Shown: positions 6,318 through 17,525, numbered from the stretch's first letter. The stretch: 64,000 nucleotides of DNA from Candidatus Multivoradales bacterium (GCA_965223325.1 CBDCWI010000001.1:1600001-1664000), one strand, 5' to 3'. Numbers and translations: made by a program. The notes: generated from the sequence alone by a model not told the origin.

Positions 6318-6767
6318 GTCGTCCTGGCTCGGAGATGTAGCTCGAAGATGGAAAGAGATTGAGGCCTCGTAAGCCCGCCGACCCTACCTGAAGGGCTTCA
6401 GCTGGAGCCGCCCAACAGGGCTGCCTTGTTTCTTTGGCTCTTTAACCATTTTTCAGAGAAAAACGAGTCAACAAGCTCTACGATTCCTGCGCTCGCGATC
6501 GAGCAGCAAGAACATGAACTAGACTCTGCGCATCCCTTTTCTTGATTTGCCTTGGCTTGTTTGGGTTCGCGTGAACGTTCCCTTTGGCTTCCCGTCGGGG
6601 AGTCGGCCCTTCTCCAGAAGGCCTGAGCCGTTACCTGAACGCCCTATCGCGCCTTAGTCCCTGTGCCCGATCCTTTTTCGGGGCACCCCATCGTTGCAGG
6701 ATCTCGCGTGGGACCGGAAGTCGGAAGTCTTCCGGTGACCGCGGAACCTCAGGAGGGTTTTTGCCCA

Positions 6768-9700
6768 ATGAAACATTCAAGTCTTCGATCGATCCGTTTC
6801 TCCGCCGCGCTTTCTGTCGGAGTCGCGCTCCTCGCCGCTCTCGCCTTGCCGCGCAGCACAGAGGCCGACGATCGCGATCTGCTTCGCAGTCGCAACAGTC
6901 GACCCTACGTCTTCGCGATCATCGACACCTCGTCGTCGATGAACCGTCGACCCATCGGCCCAACGGCAATCGCCAGCATCGACGACCCTCAGTCTCGCCT
7001 GTACCTGGCGAAGTCGGCGCTCTACGAAGTGGTCTCCGATGAAGAGCTTCAGCGCAACGCCATCTTCGGCTGGGCGCACTTCAACTACGAGAACTACTTC
7101 GCCAAACGCAAGCATTTCGTCTACACCCGCACCAGCGATTCGGCCGCGCCAGCCTGGTTCTCCGAGTTGCCCTGGCCGGTCCCGGGCGAACCGCTCTTCT
7201 TTGGCGATCCGGTTTCAATCGACGGCGGCGACGCCAACTACCGCAGTTGTTCGCTGCCCGACAACAACCAGAACGATAGCGATCGCCTGCGGCGTCTCAA
7301 CTACTTCCCGAAGCTGGGTTCAAGCTTCAACCAGCCGATGCAGATGGTTAGCTTCATCAACGGCAACGATTGGCAGATCAACCTCGGCGTTCCAACGTCG
7401 GGAACGATTGGCGCGCCCTCGGCAGACGGCCGGGTGAGTATTCCGGTCACGGTGATCAAAGGCTGCGCTGGAAGCCCCACCCCAGACCGCATCTTCACCG
7501 ACACCCTTGTCGTCGAACCACTCTTTGTCGACGCCGACGGTGACGGCAATCTGATTCCGGGTTTCGAAGCGCCGGGCGCTGGCGGGCCACTGCAGCTGCC
7601 AAGCAGCTTCGTCGCCAACCGTTTCAGCGGCCAGAACTTCGGCCTTGGCGGCCTCGATGATCGCTCTTCGATCAGCGCCTGCTCGTCGACGACCCAGCTT
7701 GATGTAACCGACGCGGCTGGTGTCCTGAGCTCCGATCTCTCCTATCCACGCTACGACGACCCACTCAACCGCGGCAATGCCTTCGCACGTGGCGACCTGA
7801 TCCCGTGGGACTGGGTCAACTACCAGAATCGCTTCGACGCCGACGGCGTCAAGATTCCGCCGCCGCCAGGGTTCGAGCGCACGGCCGCCGAAGAGATTCT
7901 GGCGCGCCTGGCTCCCAACACGGTGGTCGATGGTGAAGCGGTCCTCGACGCGGACGGCAAGAAGATTCCGGACTTCCGCGTCGCGCGCTACTTCGATCAC
8001 GACGCGCCGCTGATCGGGAACTACAAGATGCCGCTCAGATCCCAGTTCGCGAACAATCCACCGATTGCCGCCGGAGGCGGTACCCCGCTGGCCGGCGTGC
8101 TCGAGGACTTCGGCGAGTGGTTCGACGCATGGGAAGCGGTCGCCGAGCTCCCCGCCGCCGATGGCGGTGACCCGAACTACGAATGTCGCCAACGTTTTGT
8201 GATTCTGCTCACCGACGGCCAGGAGAGTTGCGGTGGCGACCCGGCAGCCGCCGCGTCTGCCCTGCTCGGGAAAAAGGTCAAGACCTTTGTCATCGGTTTC
8301 GGTGATGGCCTGACCGGTCGCCTCGACGACATCGCCGATGCAGGTGGCACGGGCTCCCATGACACCAACGGAAACGGTATTCCTGACTGCGCCGAGTACT
8401 TCCCCGAAGACGACGACAACAACGGTGTCGTCGACTGCGTCGAAGAGGGCGCTCCGGTTGCCGAAGACCGCGACGAACTGGTGCGGGTTCTCAAGCGGCT
8501 GGTCGGAGCGACCGGCGAACAGACCGGCGCAGCGACTTTCAGTGCCGGTGGCGTCCCAGCTCAGAACTCGTTCTCACCGTTCTCGGCCTACTTCGGAAAC
8601 TTCTTTCCCATCCAGGGGTCCTCGACCTGGCACGGCCGCGTCAGTCACTTCGTCAGGCCACTCTCCCAAGCCTTCCAGGCAGTCATCGATCCGTTGGCCG
8701 CCGATCGCTGCGAGGAGCGCAATGAACTCTTCTGCCTGGCCTGGGAGGCCAATTCGGTGATGCTCGGGCTCGACTCGGGCAACGATCAGGTACCCAGCCA
8801 GGCCGAGATCGACGCCGGTGACCTCCGCCTCGGTCTTCTCCCCAGCCAGCGCCGAGTCCTCTACACCATCGAGCCGGGTGTGGACGGTCGTGTTGGGCTG
8901 GCATCGCGGATGTTCGAACCTGCGACGGGTGCGGCCCTCCGCCTCGACCTGATCGACGGTCTGGGTTACCCGCTCAACGAGCCAGACGTCGACAGCAAGA
9001 TCGACAACGTAGTTGCCAGAACACTGGTCGAAAAGGCCTCACCGAACAGCTTCGTGGGTTCTCGAATCCTCGGTGACTCTCTGCACGCGCAATCGACTCT
9101 GGTCGGCGGTCCGTCGCGCACGTTGTACCTGCGCGACGAGGTACGAGACGAGGATCGCAGCGACGGGTACAAGGAGTTTTTCGACAAGCACCGCACCCGC
9201 CGCCGGATGCTCTACGTTCCAGCCAACGACGGCCAGATCCACGCCATCGATGCCGGTAACTTCTCAGAGGAACAAGCACCGCCCGACGAACCGCCGTACC
9301 GCACTCCGTTCGACCTCGGTACCGGACAGGAGGTCTTCTCCTACATTCCGCGCTTGATGCTGCCGCACGTGAGGCGACTCACCGAAACCACGGATCATGA
9401 GCTGGGAATCGACGACACGCCCGTGCGCGATGACTTCTTCATCGATCCCCGGCACGACGGCATTCCCACGGTAACCGAGCGCGAGTGGCGCACCGTTCTG
9501 GTGGGAGGCCTTCGCGAAGGCGGCTCGGGCTACTACGCGCTCGATGTCACCCAACCCGACAAGCTCGTTGAATCGAGCGAGAACCCGGACCTGCTGATCC
9601 CGCAGACCACCGCCAGCTACGTGCCGACCTGCATCACCAGCTACAACGAGGCCGACTGCGGCCCCGTCGAGTTCCCGAAGATGCTGTGGGAGTTCCAGGA

Positions 9701-10913
9701 TCTCGATGGCAATGGGGTACCCCGCGATGACGACGCCAACCAGGGCAACGATCTGGGCTTCACCTGGTCAACGCCCAACACCGGCCGTATTCGCGTCAAC
9801 ACCGGCACGGTAGCCGACCCGGTCATCGAGTCGCGCTACGTGGCGATCTTCGGTGGCGGCATGGATCCCCAGGACCCGCGAGTCGGGAACTTCATCTACA
9901 TCGTCGATATCGAAACCGGCAAGGCAATCTACAAACGCCCCGTCCTCGGTGCGGTCCCGAGCGCACCTGCCGCTGTCGACGCCGACCTCGACACCTATAT
10001 CGATACCGTCTACGTCGGAACTCTCGCCGGCTACATGTACAAGATCGATCTCTCCCGCCCGCAGCAGCTGCTCGCCGACGTGGGGGCTCCGATCATCAGC
10101 TCGCCGGCCTGGGATCCCTTCCCGATCTACGACACGACCGGCAAACAGGTCTTCATCCCGCCGGCAGTCGTCTATTCACGAGATCACAACGCCTATCTCT
10201 TGTCGTTTGGCACCGGGGATCGCGAGAACATTTTCGCGCGTGAGGAGCCTGGCATCGAGGGGCGCTACGTGACGCTTCTCGATACCTACACTCGACCGAT
10301 TGTCGGCGTACCCGCCGGCCAGAACGGCCCCGAGCACGACGACAAAGCCACTGACACGATGGTCCCGATCACCAACGAGACCAACCTGGTGTCCTTCAGC
10401 TCGACCGGCGGGGCGTCGTTGTCGCCCGACCTGATCTCAGGGGGCGGCTACGTCATCACTCTGGCCCAGCACGAGCGCCTCATCTCACGACCGTTCGCCC
10501 TTTCGGGGCTCCTGGTCTTCAGCACGTTCATTCCCGACACGACCGGCCCGGCTGGAGACAGCTGTGCGGGCGCCGGGTCGTCGAACGTCTACTCACTCTT
10601 GATCACCAACGGCAACGCGATCTCGGGCACCGACCGCTTTCGCACCGTCGACGGTTTCGTCTCGGCACCCTTCGGGTCACCTTCCAGTCGCCCCACCACC
10701 GACAAAGACCTCGGCGGAGAAGGTGCGGGAACGGCGGCCGAGCGAGCACGCATTGCCGACATACGCTCGACTCTGATGAGCCTGATGCCGGCGACATGTC
10801 GGTTCAACAACCTCAACATCGAGCTGCGGGCGGTGCGTTCGGACACCGGGTTCGAGTACGTTGCTGAGGTTCCGGTGTGCACGCAGGTGCGGAACTGGAA
10901 GGACGTGCTCTAG
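6768..10913 (+). CDS. pilY1: PilY1/PilC-like type IV pilus adhesin with vWA domain and C-terminal beta-propeller
   Basis: AGGAGG RBS; signal peptide; MIDAS DTSSS..LTDG; propeller motifs ANDGQIHAID, YIPR, WRTVLVGGLREGG, YALDVT, FGTGD; several DxDxDG Ca-binding loops. Confidence 0.85.
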   Translation: MKHSSLRSIRFSAALSVGVALLAALALPRSTEADDRDLLRSRNSRPYVFAIIDTSSSMNRRPIGPTAIASIDDPQSRLYLAKSALYEVVSDEELQRNAIFGWAHFNYENYFAKRKHFVYTRTSDSAAPAWFSELPWPVPGEPLFFGDPVSIDGGDANYRSCSLPDNNQNDSDRLRRLNYFPKLGSSFNQPMQMVSFINGNDWQINLGVPTSGTIGAPSADGRVSIPVTVIKGCAGSPTPDRIFTDTLVVEPLFVDADGDGNLIPGFEAPGAGGPLQLPSSFVANRFSGQNFGLGGLDDRSSISACSSTTQLDVTDAAGVLSSDLSYPRYDDPLNRGNAFARGDLIPWDWVNYQNRFDADGVKIPPPPGFERTAAEEILARLAPNTVVDGEAVLDADGKKIPDFRVARYFDHDAPLIGNYKMPLRSQFANNPPIAAGGGTPLAGVLEDFGEWFDAWEAVAELPAADGGDPNYECRQRFVILLTDGQESCGGDPAAAASALLGKKVKTFVIGFGDGLTGRLDDIADAGGTGSHDTNGNGIPDCAEYFPEDDDNNGVVDCVEEGAPVAEDRDELVRVLKRLVGATGEQTGAATFSAGGVPAQNSFSPFSAYFGNFFPIQGSSTWHGRVSHFVRPLSQAFQAVIDPLAADRCEERNELFCLAWEANSVMLGLDSGNDQVPSQAEIDAGDLRLGLLPSQRRVLYTIEPGVDGRVGLASRMFEPATGAALRLDLIDGLGYPLNEPDVDSKIDNVVARTLVEKASPNSFVGSRILGDSLHAQSTLVGGPSRTLYLRDEVRDEDRSDGYKEFFDKHRTRRRMLYVPANDGQIHAIDAGNFSEEQAPPDEPPYRTPFDLGTGQEVFSYIPRLMLPHVRRLTETTDHELGIDDTPVRDDFFIDPRHDGIPTVTEREWRTVLVGGLREGGSGYYALDVTQPDKLVESSENPDLLIPQTTASYVPTCITSYNEADCGPVEFPKMLWEFQDLDGNGVPRDDDANQGNDLGFTWSTPNTGRIRVNTGTVADPVIESRYVAIFGGGMDPQDPRVGNFIYIVDIETGKAIYKRPVLGAVPSAPAAVDADLDTYIDTVYVGTLAGYMYKIDLSRPQQLLADVGAPIISSPAWDPFPIYDTTGKQVFIPPAVVYSRDHNAYLLSFGTGDRENIFAREEPGIEGRYVTLLDTYTRPIVGVPAGQNGPEHDDKATDTMVPITNETNLVSFSSTGGASLSPDLISGGGYVITLAQHERLISRPFALSGLLVFSTFIPDTTGPAGDSCAGAGSSNVYSLLITNGNAISGTDRFRTVDGFVSAPFGSPSSRPTTDKDLGGEGAGTAAERARIADIRSTLMSLMPATCRFNNLNIELRAVRSDTGFEYVAEVPVCTQVRNWKDVL

Positions 10914-10947
10914 AAAACCCATGGTTCATACCATGGGTTTTCTAGAG
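10908..10947. repeat. Perfect palindrome (17-bp arms, 6-nt loop) overlapping the pilY1 stop; head of repeat copy 1
   Basis: CTCTAGAAAACCCATGG-TTCATA-CCATGGGTTTTCTAGAG read directly from the sequence. Confidence 0.95.
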
Positions 10948-10962
10948 ATCACTCCTGCGGTG

Positions 10963-12872
10963 ATCGCGGTAGGAGCGCCGGTTGCCCGGCGCCCCCCGCA
11001 CAGATCCCAGCGTGCACTGCTAATGCACTGGGCTCCTGCCTCAGGTATTGACGACAAGTCGCTCATCAGGCCAGGGATGTTGGACTCGGGCTTTGGGTAG
11101 GTAGTGGGCCACCAGGGCCCACATCCGTTTCCAGGACGTGCGGTCTTTGTCACTGCGTCGGCGCAGAGCGCGCATCCAGTGCCGAATGACCTCCTGTCGA
11201 AAGGCGTTCAACGCCGCTGAGTTGCCGGGTACGCCGTAGTAGGCATTGAAGCCTCGCACCACGGATCCCAGCCAGAGACCTTGCTCTGGTAGCGGCGAGT
11301 GTCGGTGTCCCAGAAGGGCCGTACCGACAGCCTTCAGTGTCCTGCGGATTCGGTGGCGGCTCGTGATGCGCTTCAGCAAGAACCTCCCTCGACTAGACTG
11401 CGCACAGCAGTGCGTAAAGCCTAGAAACTCGAAGGTCTCCGGCCGCCCGAGACCTCGCGCGCGTCGGTTGTAGGCCGCAAAGCGGCCAAACTCCAGCAGG
11501 CGCGTCTTCTCGGGTTGGATCTCCAACGAGAAGTCACGGAGTCGCAGGTTCAGTTCCTCGAGGAATCGTTCTGCCTCCTCCTGCCTCTCAAATCCAACGA
11601 TGAAGTCATCCGCGTAGCGCACGAAGATCATGTCCCCAAGCGCGTTGCGTTTCCTCCACTGCTGGACCCAGAGATCGAGCACGTAGTGCAGGTACACGTT
11701 CCCGAGGAGAGGCGAAATCGTCGCCCCCTGAGGAGTCCCCCGCGTGCTCGCGTGCCACTTACCGTCTTCCATCACTCCGGACCTCAGCCATTTCTGGATG
11801 AGGCGAAGGATCCTACGGTCTCCGATACGGTGCTCGAGAAACTTCACCAGCCACTCGTGGTCCAGGGCATCGAAGAACCCACGAATGTCTGCGTCGAGCA
11901 CCCAGTTCACCTTCCGCTTTGTGATTCCAACGAATAGCGCATCCAAAGCATCGTGCTGGCTGCGGCCTCGCCTGAATCCGTATGAGTACCCGAGAAAGTC
12001 TTCCTCGTAGATCGCATCCAACACCGAGACGACGGCGCGCTGAAGGATCTTGTCCTCCAACGTGGCGATGCCAAGCGGTCGGAACCGCCCATCCGATTTC
12101 TCGATGTAGACGCGACGAGTCGCACTCGCCCGGTAGCTCCCACGGTGGACACGAGAGTGCAGGTCCTCGAGATTGCTCAGCAAAGATTCTGCGTACTCGC
12201 TCCATGACACTCCGTCCACTCCTGCCGCTGCGTCTCGGTGCAACACGTCAAATGCGCTCCGGAGTCGCTCGACCGTGATGTGGTGAAGAAGCGCTGTGAA
12301 CTTCACTTCCTTGCCCCTGCGGGCGGCTTCTCGTACACGGCCCAGCGCATTGCTCGCACTCTCCATCCGGCTCTGTGTCCGGGGTGCGTTTTGCTTGCCC
12401 GTGTTCCCCTTGGCCAGGCCCCTTCCCTCCACCGCCTCCGCCGCTGGTCTCCCACCGTTGTTCGACGACTTCGCAGGTACTACGGGCCTGTCTGACTTCC
12501 GCCATCCGTGCGTCATCGGCTTACGGCCTCTAGCCTTCCCGATGCGGACCAGATACCCAACTGGCCAGATCGCGGATCTCCCGGTTCTCGCGCATGGAGA
12601 TTCCACACATGCACAGGGTCTACGACCGCGGGGAGTCGCCGCAGAGCTCGCGATAGCGCGCTACGGAGTCTCGCCTTCCGCTTCGCTTGACAGCGTCGGC
12701 ACTCCCAAATTCTTATTTCGCGGCTCAATACCCGGCCTGTGTGTGCCCCTGTCAACGCTTCACCGCTCCCTCGCGGGAGCCGGCGCATGACTCGGGGACC
12801 CTCTGGGTCGCTACCCCTTCGAGGGTGGGACTCTCTCATTCCTTTCTCCATGCCGGTTTATCCCGGCGTATC
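10963..12872 (-). mobile_element. Group II intron (bacterial class E/F-like, IIB-type, lacking endonuclease domain), 1910 nt
   Basis: Boundaries fixed by comparison with the empty repeat copy at 13065/13066; domain I closing stem GCATGGAGA/TCTCCATGC; EBS1 loop at 12684-12689; DV GAGCCCAGTGCA..TGCACGCTGGGATCT at ~11002-11035; DVI ending CCTACCGCGAT with bulged A at -8. Confidence 0.92.
11041..12516 (-). CDS. ltrA: Group II intron reverse transcriptase/maturase
   Basis: FTALLHH, AAGVDG, RPLGI, GFRRGRSQHDAL, DADIRGFFD, GTPQG..SPLL, RYADD, FEFLGF and domain X; no C-terminal HNH endonuclease; start could be 12606 or 12516. Confidence 0.95.
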   Translation of the reverse strand: MTHGWRKSDRPVVPAKSSNNGGRPAAEAVEGRGLAKGNTGKQNAPRTQSRMESASNALGRVREAARRGKEVKFTALLHHITVERLRSAFDVLHRDAAAGVDGVSWSEYAESLLSNLEDLHSRVHRGSYRASATRRVYIEKSDGRFRPLGIATLEDKILQRAVVSVLDAIYEEDFLGYSYGFRRGRSQHDALDALFVGITKRKVNWVLDADIRGFFDALDHEWLVKFLEHRIGDRRILRLIQKWLRSGVMEDGKWHASTRGTPQGATISPLLGNVYLHYVLDLWVQQWRKRNALGDMIFVRYADDFIVGFERQEEAERFLEELNLRLRDFSLEIQPEKTRLLEFGRFAAYNRRARGLGRPETFEFLGFTHCCAQSSRGRFLLKRITSRHRIRRTLKAVGTALLGHRHSPLPEQGLWLGSVVRGFNAYYGVPGNSAALNAFRQEVIRHWMRALRRRSDKDRTSWKRMWALVAHYLPKARVQHPWPDERLVVNT

Positions 12873-13273
12873 CAAGCGGGCCATCGCCTGGGCCGCGTGC
12901 GGCAGCGACCGCCCTGCTCATGCGATCGAGAACTGCCACGGATCGGGCGCGCACCGCGGATCCCGGGCTTCGATGAAGCGAGGTGGATGGGCGCGCCCGG
13001 CATCCTTAGCCTGACCGAAACCCATGCTGCATACCATGGGTTTTCTAGAGATCACTCCTGCGGTGCAAGCGGGCCATCGCCTGGGCCGCGTGCGGCAGCG
13101 ACCGCCCTGCTCATGCGATCGAGAACTGCCACGGATCGGGCGCGCACCGCGGATCCCGGGCTTCGATGAAGCGAGGTGGATGGGCGCGCCCGGCATCCTT
13201 AGCCTGACCGAAACCCATGGTGCATACCATGGGTTTCTCAAGATCACTCCTGCGGTGCCAGCGGGCCGTCGCC
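12873..13273. repeat. Tandem ~193-bp palindromic intergenic repeat: remainder of copy 1 (12873-13016), full copy 2 (13017-13209), truncated copy 3 (13210-13273)
   Basis: 12873-13026 is identical to 13066-13219 by hand alignment; each unit starts with the AAACCCATG(G/C)-N6-CCATGGGTTT hairpin. Confidence 0.95.
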
Positions 13274-13292
13274 GTGCTCTCCGATTGAGCGC

Positions 13293-14426
13293 TCAGCCTA
13301 TGGCTGCCTTGAGTAGGTAGGCCACGGCCAGGCCGGCGTAGGTGCCTACTGCGTAGCCCAGGATTCCTACTGCCAGACCTGGTACGACCAGGTCGCGCCA
13401 GCCGCGGCTGCTGGCTAGGGCCATGGCGGTGGGGGGGCCGCCAATGGCTGCTTGTGAGGCCACTGAGAGGGTCTCTACGTCTAGCTTCATCACGCGGCCT
13501 AGTAGGTAGAGCACCAGGCCGTGGATGGCTACGACGGTCAGGGTGAACCACAGGATCGACCAGCCGACGACTCTGATCTCGGAGAGCCTCGACGAGATCC
13601 CGATGACTACGAAGAACAGGTGGAGAGCGATGTAGCCGAGGGCGAAGCCACCGTTCAGGTTTCTCGCCCATGGCAGGAAGCCCACGCACAGTGCCAGCGT
13701 GGTCAGGAACAGGACCTCGGGAACCGCGGGAAAGAGCGAGCCGAGCCAGGAGGCTGCGAGGACTACGGCCAGGCCCACGAGCAACAGGCTGAGAGCGTCC
13801 ATTGGTGACAGCCTGCCGAGCATCATCTCCGACTCGGGCGGTCGTTCGTTCGCGGAGGCTCCCGGTGCTTCGAGCTTTCTTTTTGGATAGTAGGCCGCCA
13901 GCCAGACAGGCAGTACGAGCGACATGCCAACCCACAGGCCAGTGGCTACGTTGTCGGCGGCGGTGGCGGCTGCGAACATGGACGGTGACAACTCGACGGC
14001 TCGCTCGACTGCCACGAAATTGAGGCTTCCACCACTGTAGGTACCGGTCATCACTCCGCCGAGTTTCCAGGTCTCGGCACCGAGCTCCCGGCCGAACGCG
14101 ACGACGGCGACGACCGCACCGACTGCGGTGGCGAAGACCGCCAGGCCAAACGCCTGGAGCATGCGCGGCCCCGTCGCGCGAAGGCGATCCAGCCGCAGCG
14201 ACAACAACAACCATACGATCGCAAGCGACACCAGCGGCCCTGAGATCACTTGATAGACCTTCGACTCGGCGGGTACCAGGCCGGCGTTCGAGAGCAACGC
14301 ACCGAAAACGATCGCCAAGAGCGGAGCACCCAACACGCGCAGACCCGCAAATCGCCCTTCGAGCCAGAACGACAAGGCGACAATGGCGACGATGAGCGCG
14401 AGGAGTGCTGTTGGATGGTCGAGCAT
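13293..14426 (-). CDS. DUF819 family membrane protein
   Basis: About 11 TM segments; GTYSGGSLNF, ASQAAIGGPPTA, GILGYAVGTY motifs. Confidence 0.85.
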   Translation of the reverse strand: MLDHPTALLALIVAIVALSFWLEGRFAGLRVLGAPLLAIVFGALLSNAGLVPAESKVYQVISGPLVSLAIVWLLLSLRLDRLRATGPRMLQAFGLAVFATAVGAVVAVVAFGRELGAETWKLGGVMTGTYSGGSLNFVAVERAVELSPSMFAAATAADNVATGLWVGMSLVLPVWLAAYYPKRKLEAPGASANERPPESEMMLGRLSPMDALSLLLVGLAVVLAASWLGSLFPAVPEVLFLTTLALCVGFLPWARNLNGGFALGYIALHLFFVVIGISSRLSEIRVVGWSILWFTLTVVAIHGLVLYLLGRVMKLDVETLSVASQAAIGGPPTAMALASSRGWRDLVVPGLAVGILGYAVGTYAGLAVAYLLKAAIG

Positions 14427-14595
14427 TGGCGGAGGTCTTCTGAGCGAGCCGTTCCCGGAACCGCGCCCATCGAGGGTGCAGGTGCAATGAAATGTTCACA
14501 GCGGCGGGCAGAAACCATGCACCCACCGGGACCGGGCCCGGCCCATGGGATGCACGGAGCGCGCTCTCCCGCCGTAGAACCCGCGAGTTGTCGGG

Positions 14596-15510
14596 ATGAA
14601 AGTGGTACCAATCTACCCCAAGGTCTCACTTCAACCGCGCATTGCCGTTCCTCGGCCTTCTATGCCAGCATCCATCGCCTGGCCTCAGGCCATCTCCCAG
14701 GCACTGCCGCCCATGACAGCCCCCGACAACGACACACCCCCGGCGCCAGCTGGCGCCCTGCCCACGGAAGTGGAGATAGCGGGTACGCCTGCGCCTCAAA
14801 CATCGGATTCAACGGAGCAGGAGGTCTCGCGCGGTGGCCGCCTGTGGGCCGACTGGGGGCGACCCTTCCTGATCATTGTGATCGTCATGAGCACCCTTCG
14901 CTCGACGGTGGCCGACTGGAATCACGTGCCAACGGGCTCGATGGAGCCGACGATCCTGGTTGGCGACCGCATCTTCGTCAACAAACTCGCCTACGACCTC
15001 AGGCTGCCATTCACGATGGTCCGCTTGACGCGCTGGCACTCACCGCAGCCTGGTGACCTGATCGTCTTTCGTTCGCCCAAGGACGGCCGGCGCGTGGTCA
15101 AGCGGGTCATCGGTCTGCCCGGCGATACCGTGAGCCTGCGATCCAACCGCCTTTCGGTCAACGACGAAGAGGCGCGCTACCAGCCGCTCGATGCCTCGAC
15201 GCTGCCCTACGTGGCCTCGGCATCACTCGACTTCTACGACTTCCAGACCGAGTCCTCGCGCGCTCTCGCGTCTCACCCGATCATGACCTCGCCACGGTTA
15301 CCGTCACAGGCGACCTTCGGGCCTGTCAAGGTGCCCGACGGTCACCTCTTTGTCCTCGGCGATAGCCGCGACGACAGTTTTGACTCGCGCTTCTTCGGCT
15401 TCGTCGAGAAGGATCGTGTGTTCGGCCGCGCACACGCCATCGCCCTCTCGGTTGATCCAACCGAAGGCTACAAGCCGCGTTGGGGGCGCTTCTTCCAGAC
15501 GCTCGACTAG
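14596..15510 (+). CDS. lepB: Signal peptidase I
   Basis: PTGSMEPT (catalytic Ser), VKRVIGLPGD (catalytic Lys), GDSRDDSFDSR; true start may be further downstream. Confidence 0.93.
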   Translation: MKVVPIYPKVSLQPRIAVPRPSMPASIAWPQAISQALPPMTAPDNDTPPAPAGALPTEVEIAGTPAPQTSDSTEQEVSRGGRLWADWGRPFLIIVIVMSTLRSTVADWNHVPTGSMEPTILVGDRIFVNKLAYDLRLPFTMVRLTRWHSPQPGDLIVFRSPKDGRRVVKRVIGLPGDTVSLRSNRLSVNDEEARYQPLDASTLPYVASASLDFYDFQTESSRALASHPIMTSPRLPSQATFGPVKVPDGHLFVLGDSRDDSFDSRFFGFVEKDRVFGRAHAIALSVDPTEGYKPRWGRFFQTLD

Positions 15511-15548
15511 ACCCTCGCTCGACGAGACCCAAAGGGTCCGAGCAGGTT

Positions 15549-15743
15549 TCAGCGGGCAGCTTTGGGCATCACGATCCAGAGCAGCAGGTAGGCGAGCATG
15601 CCGGGAAACGCAGCCGACAGAACCGAGATGACAACGTAGAGCACTCGCACCCAGGTCGGGCTCCAGCCCAGCCATTCGGCCAGGCCACCACAAACGCCAC
15701 CCAGTAGGGCGTGCTTACGTGATCGGTGTAGTGGTCTATTCAT
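15549..15743 (-). CDS. pspC: PspC domain protein
   Basis: LHRSR..LGGVCGGLAEWLG..VR..YLLLWIVMP. Confidence 0.9.
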   Translation of the reverse strand: MNRPLHRSRKHALLGGVCGGLAEWLGWSPTWVRVLYVVISVLSAAFPGMLAYLLLWIVMPKAAR

Positions 15744-15821
15744 CGTGGTCTCGCTCAAGGACTCCTACCTCGCTTCTGGTCTCCGTTTTGGGTGCAGGCC
15801 GACCTACCCTGTGCCGGCCGG

Positions 15822-17525
15822 TCACTCATCCCTACGTTGCGCTTGACGATTCTGTTTCAGGTTCGCCCCGGTGGCATCTCGAGGGTCTTCTTCCGTGGAG
15901 TCATCGAGCCCGGGGGAACGGCGAGCGACCATTGACGCGGTGATCAGGAGCCCCAGGCAGAGGCCAACCGCCAGCAGACTCGCGATCCGAATCCATCCAA
16001 CCAGATCGGCGGGTTGAAGTATTCCCTCCAGGGCGAGGGCGAAGTCGAAGCCGGTTCCGGCGTCGCTTCGCATCGCTTTGAGCGCCTGGAGAGCCGCGGT
16101 AACGAGAGTGGCGAACACCGTTGCCGCCACTCCGATCGCACCGCCACGCAAGAGCAACTGTTCCCGGGTGAGAGGCACAAGCGGCTCTGGCTCTCGCACC
16201 TCGAAGTGTGGTTCGCGCGTCCCCCAGGGCACGAAGCGGTGCAGCATGACGAGGCCTGGGATTCCGAGCACCATCGAAGCGATGAAGAACCAGGACCAGC
16301 CCGCCGCGTCGACGGTAAAGCCCGCGATCGGGCCCGAGAAGATGCGCCCCATACCGAAGAGCGTCGAAAACAGCGCGTACTGCGTCGCCGAGAAGCGTTT
16401 CTGGGTCATGCGCAGCAAGAGCACCGAGAAGGCTCCTGTCCCCATCCCCTGGCACAGAGTCTCGAAGCCCATTGCAATGACCATGGCGACGGTCGAATGC
16501 TCGGTATGCGCCAGGTACAGATACCCGACGTTGGAGAAGATCTGGAGGAGGCCGAACACCCAGAGGGCGCGACCCAGGCCCAGAAAGTTCGTACAAACGC
16601 CACCTAGAATCGCCCCTCCGATCTGGGTGAGCAACCCCACGGAGGAGAGCGCCACGCCACGTTCGGCAGCGGTGTAGCCCATGTCGACCAGGAACGGCCG
16701 CAGAAGCGACTGGGCGAAGTTGTCGGCGAACTTGAACAGTAGAACGAAGGCCAGAATCTCGAGCGCTCGGTCGCGCGACAGGAAGCCCACAAAGGGCTTC
16801 CAGATCGCCTCCGCCAGAGATGTCGGTTCGGGGTAGTCGATCTGTGGTTCGGGTGCGAAGGCGGTGATCATCAGCATCGGCACGTACAAAAGGCCGAGGC
16901 CAATGCAGACCGCTGACCATCCGAAGCGATCGGCAAGCGTAATCGCCGAGCCACCGGCGACGAACATCGCCACCCGGTACAGGCCGATGCGCGCGCCAAC
17001 CGCTACCCCCTGCTCTTCGCGCCGCAGGACATCCACCGCGTAACCGTCGATCGCAATGTCCTGAGAGGCCGCCGCAATACCGATCGCGAGAGCGAACGCA
17101 AAAACGACCAGTGGGGCGTTGGGGTCGTTGGCAACTCCTCCAAGGCCGATGGTGGCGAGCATCAAGCAAACCTGGGCCACCGCCGCCCAGCCACGCCGAC
17201 GGCCGAAGAAGGGCGGCCGCCACCTCTCCATGAGCGGCGCCCAGAGTACGTTGAACGTCCAGGGCACCTGGGCCAGGGTAAAGAGCCCGACGATCCTGAT
17301 ATCGACACCGGAGTCGGCAAGCCAGTCCGGTATCGCGATCCAGACGAAGCCGAGCGGCAAACCAGAGGAGAACGACAACAGAACCACAGCTGCCGTTCGC
17401 CATGACAAGAGGGCGTAGTAGAGGCTGGCGAGCGTTCCGGGACGCTTCTCCGTGGCTGCCTGGGACGGAACCGAGGACTGGTCTGGCGGCCCGGGATGAC
17501 CGTCGCGCTCTGGGTGGTCCGTCAT
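15822..17525 (-). CDS. ampG: AmpG family muropeptide MFS transporter with C-terminal membrane extension
   Basis: FSSGLPL, GRRRGW, ASQDIAIDGY, FSATQYALFS; start set at ATG 17525 to avoid overlap with the divergent gene. Confidence 0.88.
   Translation of the reverse strand: MTDHPERDGHPGPPDQSSVPSQAATEKRPGTLASLYYALLSWRTAAVVLLSFSSGLPLGFVWIAIPDWLADSGVDIRIVGLFTLAQVPWTFNVLWAPLMERWRPPFFGRRRGWAAVAQVCLMLATIGLGGVANDPNAPLVVFAFALAIGIAAASQDIAIDGYAVDVLRREEQGVAVGARIGLYRVAMFVAGGSAITLADRFGWSAVCIGLGLLYVPMLMITAFAPEPQIDYPEPTSLAEAIWKPFVGFLSRDRALEILAFVLLFKFADNFAQSLLRPFLVDMGYTAAERGVALSSVGLLTQIGGAILGGVCTNFLGLGRALWVFGLLQIFSNVGYLYLAHTEHSTVAMVIAMGFETLCQGMGTGAFSVLLLRMTQKRFSATQYALFSTLFGMGRIFSGPIAGFTVDAAGWSWFFIASMVLGIPGLVMLHRFVPWGTREPHFEVREPEPLVPLTREQLLLRGGAIGVAATVFATLVTAALQALKAMRSDAGTGFDFALALEGILQPADLVGWIRIASLLAVGLCLGLLITASMVARRSPGLDDSTEEDPRDATGANLKQNRQAQRRDE

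Follow-up and report, generated by a model that had tools for sequence, protein, structure and literature searches.

The locus described here raises the question of why a group II intron lies inside a tandem palindromic repeat between two genes, and whether that repeat is its regular target. The window, by which we mean the whole 64,000-nucleotide stretch analysed, belongs to Candidatus Multivoradales bacterium (GCA_965223325.1, CBDCWI010000001.1:1600001-1664000), the genome assembly of which comprises 6.69 Mb at 64% G+C in two contigs (C1 and C2); positions without a contig prefix count from the window's first letter. An initial annotation of the window had proposed that the intron adopted a family of repeats resembling repetitive extragenic palindromes (REPs) and bacterial interspersed mosaic elements (BIMEs) as a multicopy landing pad, and the genome-wide analysis supports this proposal. 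In all probability, the element is an active, endonuclease-less group II intron, IIB-like and of the clade captured by the Rfam model RF02005, that retrohomes into a conserved box of REP/BIME-like repeats specific to this genome.

At this locus, the flank on the left of the intron reads ...CTCCTGCGGTG up to position 10962, and the flank on the right begins with CAAGCGGGCC at 12873. Excision of 10963-12872 joins them as ...CTCCTGCGGTG|CAAGCGGGCC (the vertical bar marks the insertion point here and below), which is identical to the uninterrupted neighbouring unit at 13065/13066, exactly as the initial annotation had read it. Because the flanking bases differ at each end, the boundary of the insertion is fixed and does not slide. 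The foot of the adjacent hairpin was likewise confirmed to lie 15 nt from the insertion site. On the other side of the intron, Tandem Repeats Finder reports for 12873-13273 a period of 193 bp with 2.1 copies and 97% matches, the segments 12873-13043 and 13066-13236 are 99% identical in a repeat search, and profile matches (nhmmer) for the array span C1:1612873-1613210.

A BLAST search of the genome returned 14 full-length copies of the intron as well as two pieces, one of 239 nt from the 3' end and one of 36 nt. Twelve of the full copies are identical and the other two are 1 nt off each (identity 99.9-100%), with the change at intron nt 106 in the window copy and at nt 533 in the second. The reverse transcriptase (RT) frame is open in all 14, and no further group II RT was found in the genome beyond those of the 14 copies. 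Thirteen full copies have flanks that can be aligned over ~250 nt around the junction ...(A)CGGACCGCTTG|CGCCGCAAGAGTGA..., and these copies, together with a 5'-truncated one, occupy a single position, CGCTTG|C, of one repeat family; downstream of the truncated copy (the 239-nt 3' fragment, C2:4242250-4242488), the same 3' exon and hairpin are again present. Compared in pairs, the 13 repeat-borne copies are 42-63% identical (mean 50%) over their 300-nt flanks. Near-identical introns thus lie in diverged flanks, which indicates that the 13 copies arose by separate, recent insertions into units that were already old and divergent, and that they did not multiply together with the repeats.

This pattern bears on passive spread, in which a single insertion would have been followed by multiplication of intron-bearing units along with the repeats. 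The repeats do multiply locally, and the units within one array are nearly identical, as such spread would have it. However, the divergence of the flanks contrasts with the near-identity of the introns, each occupied unit matches the empty neighbours in its own array, the 13 occupied arrays hold one intron each and 17 perfect empty sites among them, and one copy lies outside the repeat family altogether, which leaves passive spread already close to refuted and, in our estimate, with next to no chance of being correct. A rule of one intron per array was considered and rejected, as random placement yields no double occupancy with P = 0.20, which is not significant. Contigs of an independent sample of this organism have a depth of 217.7 for the intron and 15.5 for its flank, a ratio of 14. 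Contigs of three further runs cover the intron at low depth and have loose ends that match the flanks of other intron copies in the genome. At 12767, the window has a plus-strand T where the 13 other copies have A, and T is also found in contigs of three runs.

The copy outside the family (C2:2349730-2351639) is an ectopic insertion that has only GCGCTTG|C in common with the other flanks. It lies in sense orientation where the domain of a GNAT acetyltransferase begins (PF13302, 7.9e-28), and expression of the GNAT gene would depend on splicing of the intron.

What these sites share is a match to the intron. The initial annotation had pointed to complementarity between exon-binding site 1 (EBS1) of the intron and the last six bases of the 5' exon, which form intron-binding site 1 (IBS1), and this pairing held in full: CAAGCG and CGCUUG form six of six Watson-Crick pairs in 14/14 copies. 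In the RF02005 alignment, EBS1 is contained in a loop, UCAAGCG, that is closed by CGCU/AGCG as a terminal hairpin. The base at +1, a candidate for IBS3, is C in all 14 full copies. The same loop position matches a different exon in each homologous intron. A complementarity scan places GCUGUA at these six positions in the intron of Burkholderia cenocepacia, whose own exon ends in UACAGU, and an alignment of six introns reads UAAGCG against exon CGCUUA in Pseudomonas putida, CCGUCC against GGACGG in Skermanella and ACUGU against ACAGU in Pandoraea, which amounts to 5-6 bp in each of these three. Because the loop position covaries with its own exon across homologues, the EBS1 match goes beyond chance. 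Nevertheless, CGCTTGC occurs 1797 times in the genome, ~124 of them in repeats, and the finding that 13/14 insertions use repeat-borne sites has a probability of P = 1e-14 under random choice among these 1797 sites, which means that something beyond IBS1 and the +1 C guides the choice.

The repeats themselves form a large family. A profile search gave 191 matches at 62 loci, mostly head-to-tail arrays of 2-7 matches with periods of ~130-310 bp, and 146 of the 191 matches span the insertion junction. A stricter scan identified 126 empty units, 111 of which contain an exact CGCTTG|C, and 56 of the latter also have ACGGA at -12 to -8. In intron sense, a full unit ends in a long stem of the form xTAG-N7-CGTGGT ... 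ACCACG-N7'-CTAx, and the insertion site falls within the repeat linker, at 15-16 nt on the 5' side of this xTAG-tagged palindrome. The interior of the stem is usually ~80 nt, sometimes 60 nt, and 3-4 nt in a few arrays that include the one in the window; among 93 genome matches to the hairpin motif, 77 have interiors of 70-89 nt and six have fewer than 10 nt, as in the window. There are 47 distinct pairs of arms, and xTAG is at the arm ends in nearly all of them. The N7 part varies from array to array, yet the two arms keep their complementarity (805 Watson-Crick, 19 G.T, 6 A.C and 16 other cells), which could reflect selection on structure or conversion between the arms. Co-variation of the 7-8 nt between xTAG and CGTGGT across the arms can be seen, for example, at C2:1156895, C2:919806 and C1:2006487.

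The hairpin motif falls within these arrays in 84/93 occurrences. The remaining nine belong to three further arrays that the profile missed, in which the same hairpin module is joined to different linkers, and the architecture of the family therefore looks mosaic by analogy with BIMEs. These three arrays are at C2:90915-91700, C2:1640850-1641500 and C2:952726, and one of their linkers reads GCGCTTG|G, which has IBS1 without the +1 C. Elsewhere, two arrays that face in opposite directions, C1:819947-823037(-) and C1:823234-824154(+), lie ~200 bp apart, and one of them bears an intron.

Targeting might alternatively be guided mainly by structure, as in class C (IIC) introns, with the hairpin or a single-stranded palindrome as the main determinant and EBS1-IBS1 pairing as fine tuning. 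The distance of 15-16 nt from the insertion site to the long palindrome is fixed, the site itself is inside a 13-bp palindrome, CTTGCGCCGCAAG, and CGCTTG|C by itself leaves the choice among the 1797 sites unexplained, all of which fits such guidance. However, the hairpin here is in the 3' exon, whereas IIC insertion is described as following a hairpin in the 5' exon (PMC4424553, PMC1702495), and EBS1 has its full 6 bp. Moreover, no repeat hairpin was seen in the 60-nt flanks of the GNAT copy, yet IBS1 and the +1 C are kept there, and distance and sequence are confounded as parts of one repeat unit. We therefore consider guidance by structure improbable as the main determinant.

The position of the arrays relative to genes supports the likeness to REPs. 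At 56/62 loci, the gene that follows the array on its 3' side, in intron sense, is oriented against it and terminates no more than a few bases away. Of the 62 arrays, 44 have an outer arm that could be identified, and in 35 of these 44 the abutting gene stops at the TAG (33) or TAA (2) that the arm carries 10 nt ahead of CGTGGT; in four more arrays the stop codon lies 3-8 nt upstream of the outer arm. Because the arm supplies the stop codon in most of these arrays, the repeats begin at stop codons and the intron is antisense to the abutting gene. GTAG REPs are described as xTAG-tagged palindromes that are reiterated in tandem with flanking DNA and whose TAG serves as the stop of flanking open reading frames (ORFs) (PMC3733652). 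By analogy, the present family resembles such GTAG-tagged REP/BIME elements in having xTAG at the foot of the palindrome, an extragenic position, high copy number, tandem arrangement with flanking DNA and TAG stop codons, which suits the REP/BIME-like label that the initial annotation had chosen (PMC3733652). Unlike those elements, the stems here mostly enclose ~80 nt instead of a short loop, there is no 20-40 bp unit, and the xTAG is itself base-paired; in contrast to BIMEs, the units run head to tail and do not alternate in orientation.

REPs can be accompanied by a cognate REP-associated tyrosine transposase (RAYT), and the genome does contain RAYT-like genes: the Y1 transposase domain PF01797 has 28 matches, 25 of them above the cut-off, and in NCBIfam the Y1 genes come closest to REP-associated tyrosine transposase, with scores short of its cut-off (37 and 66.8 vs 80 bits). 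Unlike RAYT genes with cognate REPs, those here are not flanked by repeats. Only one of the 28 PF01797 matches lies within 315 bp of an array, and the hairpin motif was not found near the RAYT-like genes. Apart from this one gene, no transposase is present inside or beside the arrays. Among the findings that, according to the initial annotation, would speak against a partnership of intron and repeat were intron copies in unrelated sequence, a repeat that is a single local duplication, and a remnant of a known insertion sequence (IS). Instead, all but one of the full copies and the truncated copy share the repeat position, the repeat recurs at 62 loci, and the arrays lack a transposase in or next to them save the RAYT-like gene 315 bp away. 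The RAYT-like paralogue family is unusually large; its ORFs are mostly ~320-350 aa, and many are in two dense clusters (C2:4455510-4486968 and C1:2126128-2143849).

The structured stems also invite another reading, in which the repeats would encode a structured RNA that is transcribed in intron sense, with the element as a genuine intron of this RNA. On the intron-sense strand, G.T pairs of the long stem (19) outnumber A.C (6), which would be the wobbles of the other strand, and 9/13 occupied arrays have a co-oriented gene upstream, both of which favour an RNA on that strand. Yet the wobble count includes related copies, the units have no Rfam match on either strand (no family at E<=1 for window positions 8000-16000 and five other array loci), and RNAalifold, run on both strands, finds covariation support in the long stem only. 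The anchoring at TAG stops (35/44) points to logic at the DNA level or in gene sense. An RNA gene of this kind is thus, in our view, an unlikely explanation. Two candidate structures were set aside: a pairing of two invariant boxes proposed by RNAalifold carries no evidential weight because the boxes are invariant, and a match of mir-145 to the window hairpin (22 bits, E = 0.24) is noise.

The intron found in these repeats has a complete anatomy (Table 1). The RF02005 match covers model positions 1-225 of 225 and far exceeds the gathering score of 49; the B. cenocepacia intron on plasmid pBCJ2315 matches the same model with 188.7 bits. Folding of the last 80 nt of intron RNA gives both the domain V and domain VI hairpins (z = -3.96), the layout of domain VI is the same in the B. 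cenocepacia homologue, and the UA bulge of domain VI, seven to eight bases from the 3' end, offers a candidate branch-point A on this model. The 3' end, AU, fits the AY boundary consensus. The RT/maturase ORF ends immediately ahead of domain V, which leaves a ribozyme of ~434 nt outside the ORF (1910 minus 1476 nt). No endonuclease (D/En, HNH) domain was detected in the RT/maturase, where RVT_1 is the sole Pfam family at E<=0.01. Intron-encoded proteins (IEPs) without endonuclease are found in the lineages of classes A, C, D, E and F.

Mobility of such an intron would start with excised intron RNA and the RT/maturase, which would reverse-splice into the DNA strand ...ACGGACCGCTTG|CGCCGCAAG, where CGCTTG would pair with CAAGCG of EBS1 and further upstream contacts around CGGA (-11 to -8) probably add specificity. 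This strand is antisense to the gene whose TAG stop starts the array; insertions in the repeat linker break no gene and may be selectively neutral, and the family offers more than 100 further sites. Reverse transcription would then complete the insertion, and since the IEP has no endonuclease, priming of the cDNA must come from the host. Read-through from a co-oriented upstream gene could supply the intron RNA; by our own reading of the neighbouring genes, such a gene is present in 9/13 occupied arrays, and in the window it is the DUF819 gene that is a possible source of read-through transcription of array and intron. From the presence of 12 identical copies in diverged flanks, which supports splicing and retromobility indirectly, we infer that the intron spread by reverse splicing and reverse transcription.

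Several observations weigh against this account of retrohoming, in which transcription, splicing and exon ligation are predictions from the DNA sequence. The family profile was built from 13 reconstructed empty sites, that is, from the occupied sites' own flanks; BLAST searches with unoccupied units recover the same family. All 14 copies begin with GAUACG instead of the GUGYG consensus, and the Rfam model for domains V and VI, RF00029, gives no match at E<=1. The candidate for EBS2, UCCGU (nt 205-209) opposite ACGGA (-12 to -8), is inside a predicted stem, its region (nt 205-213) is unmatched at the equivalent position in B. cenocepacia, and neither the complementarity scan nor the six-intron alignment placed EBS2 or EBS3. 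Outside the repeats, ~1670 other CGCTTGC sites are empty but for one, and EBS1 and IBS3 (+1 C) are therefore not the whole of the specificity. Finally, priming at replication forks, on which the initial annotation had presumed such introns to rely, predicts a strand bias, and none was seen across the 62 arrays, where n is small: 7/13 occupied and 22/49 empty arrays are co-directional with replication (Fisher P = 0.76). Replication direction was taken from a GC-skew map of both contigs as one chromosome; the skew is negative throughout C1 and switches on C2 at ~0.36 Mb and ~3.52 Mb, which is consistent with a single circular chromosome in which C1 runs opposite to C2, with the origin near C2:3.52 Mb and the terminus near C2:0.36 Mb.

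With regard to the unusual 5' end and domain V, homologues share the peculiarities. In the triad of domain V, G is opposite A, and the same G.A is present in the pBCJ2315 intron, the closest plasmid homologue inspected; relatives begin with GUGCG (B. cenocepacia, Pandoraea and Pseudomonas coronafaciens) or GAGCG (P. putida and Skermanella). Because homologues have the G.A or deviant 5' ends, the GAUACG start, the triad and the lack of an RF00029 match look, on sequence comparison, like traits of the clade rather than decay.

Host priming could also connect the intron to its target more closely. HUH enzymes, which include the RAYT-like ones, nick single-stranded REP DNA near the tags and leave a free 3'-OH, and endonuclease-bearing introns nick at +9/+10 to prime reverse transcription. 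The partnership of intron and repeat might therefore be mechanistic, with the RAYT-like paralogues (~25) or a hairpin-prone single-stranded DNA (ssDNA) state of the arrays replacing the missing endonuclease domain. If the gene-sense strand were nicked immediately behind CTAG, the resulting 3'-OH would lie downstream of the insertion site and face it, in a geometry like that of endonuclease-bearing introns at +9/+10, and this would also explain the missing replication-strand bias. We rate such a mechanistic partnership as a long shot.

The match between intron and repeat appears to be specific to this lineage among the genomes searched. With up to two mismatches allowed, a 19-nt core of the repeat has 80 matches in this genome, whereas 150 other genomes of the order have 0-3 each, not above a reversed control (an unpublished genome, G158, has two). 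BLAST with the full unit against 40 relatives, including a genome of the same genus (G001), gave two short chance matches only; a motif scan of a genome-contig collection gave 23 single matches in unrelated taxa, and two metagenome scans gave none. The family is thus multicopy only in this genome among those searched. G001 contains a relative of the intron (C2:1352289-1353064 of that genome) that is 5'-truncated and internally deleted, with 77-85% identity, and this relic differs in both its EBS1 loop and its flank and lies outside any such repeat. The lack of convincing matches to the repeat in the other genomes and collections searched and the differences of the relic are the grounds for regarding the match as lineage-specific.

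Homing into a multicopy site is closest in logic to RmInt1 of Sinorhizobium meliloti, which homes into ISRm2011-2 (PMC1802570, PMC5010178), and the intron is not a new kind of element. As described for RmInt1, it combines an IEP without endonuclease, many copies, a dispensable multicopy target and EBS-IBS pairing (PMC1802570, PMC5010178). Unlike that of RmInt1, its target is a non-coding tandem repeat without transposase instead of an IS, and no replication-strand bias was seen. The intron shares with class C a widespread, non-coding palindromic target at gene ends and a compact ribozyme (~434 nt). However, IIC introns are described as being without EBS2 and part of EBS1 (PMC3753933) and as inserting downstream of a hairpin (PMC4424553), whereas the intron here, which matches RF02005, has an EBS1 of 6 bp and lies 15 nt upstream of its hairpin. 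For ribozymes of IIE/IIF, the classes to which the initial annotation had likened the intron, 450-700 nt is quoted (PMC3753933), which compares with ~434 nt here in size only and does not place the intron in a class.

REP sequences also serve as landing sites for ISs such as ISPpu9, ISPpu10, ISPa11 and IS1397. A group II intron of P. putida KT2440 is REP-associated in 2/9 copies according to a table in PMC1525189, compared with 13/14 full copies here, at one fixed linker nucleotide and with a matching EBS1. The nearest plasmid homologues are introns of P. putida, B. cenocepacia (pBCJ2315) and Pandoraea (pPV15), which have EBS1 at the same position and RT identities of 57-59%; the exon of the P. 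putida plasmid intron, ...CCGGACGCTTA|, resembles ...ACGGACCGCTTG| here. In contrast, these homologues have a transposase gene as neighbour or sit in a palindrome that precedes imuA, and they start with GUGCG or GAGCG and not GAUACG. The introns of pBCJ2315 and pPV15 are inside the palindrome TACTGT-N8-ACAGT (1119-1137 in the pBCJ2315 sequence) just upstream of imuA, and this palindrome looks like a LexA box.

A 2015 review names three target specificities of bacterial group II introns, namely homing sites, terminator motifs and attC sites (PMC4424553), and in the literature searched we found no report of a group II intron whose home is one defined position of a tandemly repeated REP/BIME-like family. 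The intron here uses ordinary EBS-IBS homing, and its home is a set of non-coding, structured, genome-specific repeats in which more than 100 sites behind stop codons are still free. It illustrates one way in which an endonuclease-less intron reaches high copy number without damage to genes, by riding another repeat population. The arrays also provide a natural system of graded targets, 56 with the full match from -12 to +1 and others with one or two changes, for the study of positions beyond IBS1. For REP/RAYT research, the family is of interest for stems that vary between loci and yet stay paired, for its anchoring at TAG stops and for the RAYT-like paralogues in the genome.

Table 1. Features of the intron, its target array and the adjoining genes in the window (ORF, open reading frame)
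Feature	Position	Strand	Details
Complete group II intron, 1910 nt	10963..12872	-	5' GAUACG ... CCGCGAU 3'
Ribozyme domains, Rfam RF02005 (group-II-D1D4-6)	12616..12834	-	182.6 bits, E = 2.6e-54
EBS1, intron nt 184-189	12684..12689	-	intron sense CAAGCG; terminal loop of Rfam alignment
Reverse transcriptase/maturase ORF, 491 aa	11041..12516	-	TIGR04416 342.6 bits (cut-off 300); RVT_1 8e-39
Domain V region	11000..11039	-	GAGCCCAG...CUGGGAUC; AGC triad, 2-nt bulge, pentaloop
Domain VI hairpin	10966..10999	-	2-nt UA bulge; 3' end GAU = 10963-10965
IBS1	12873..12878	-	intron sense CGCUUG, last six 5'-exon bases
3'-exon spacer, insertion site to hairpin foot	10948..10962	-	15 nt; intron sense CACCGCAGGAGTGAT
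Terminal palindrome of repeat array	10908..10947		arms 18 bp, loop 4 nt; CTCTAG...CATGGT / ACCATG...CTAGAG
Repeat units, head-to-tail, 193 bp, 2.1 copies	12873..13273		short-hairpin variant of the genome-wide family
Empty intact target	13060..13071	-	junction 13065/13066; intron sense CGCTTG|CACCGC
Third target copy, degenerate	13253..13264	-	intron sense CGCTGG|C; one IBS1 mismatch
PilY1-like gene	6663..10913	+	VWA and PilY1 beta-propeller; Pfam PF05567 1e-16, PF00092 3.7e-5
DUF819 membrane-protein gene	13293..14426	-	ORF; PF05684 9.9e-59; upstream of intron, same strand

The PilY1-like and DUF819 genes of the window are convergent, and the gap between them is filled by repeat DNA (10908-10962 and 12873-13273) plus the intron. 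The TAG stop codon of the PilY1-like gene (10911-10913) is within a hairpin arm of the first repeat palindrome, whose arms (10908-10925/10930-10947) are 100% complementary in an inverted-repeat search. When folded as ssDNA, the hairpin region (10900-10965) has a predicted energy of -23 kcal/mol with z = -9.2.

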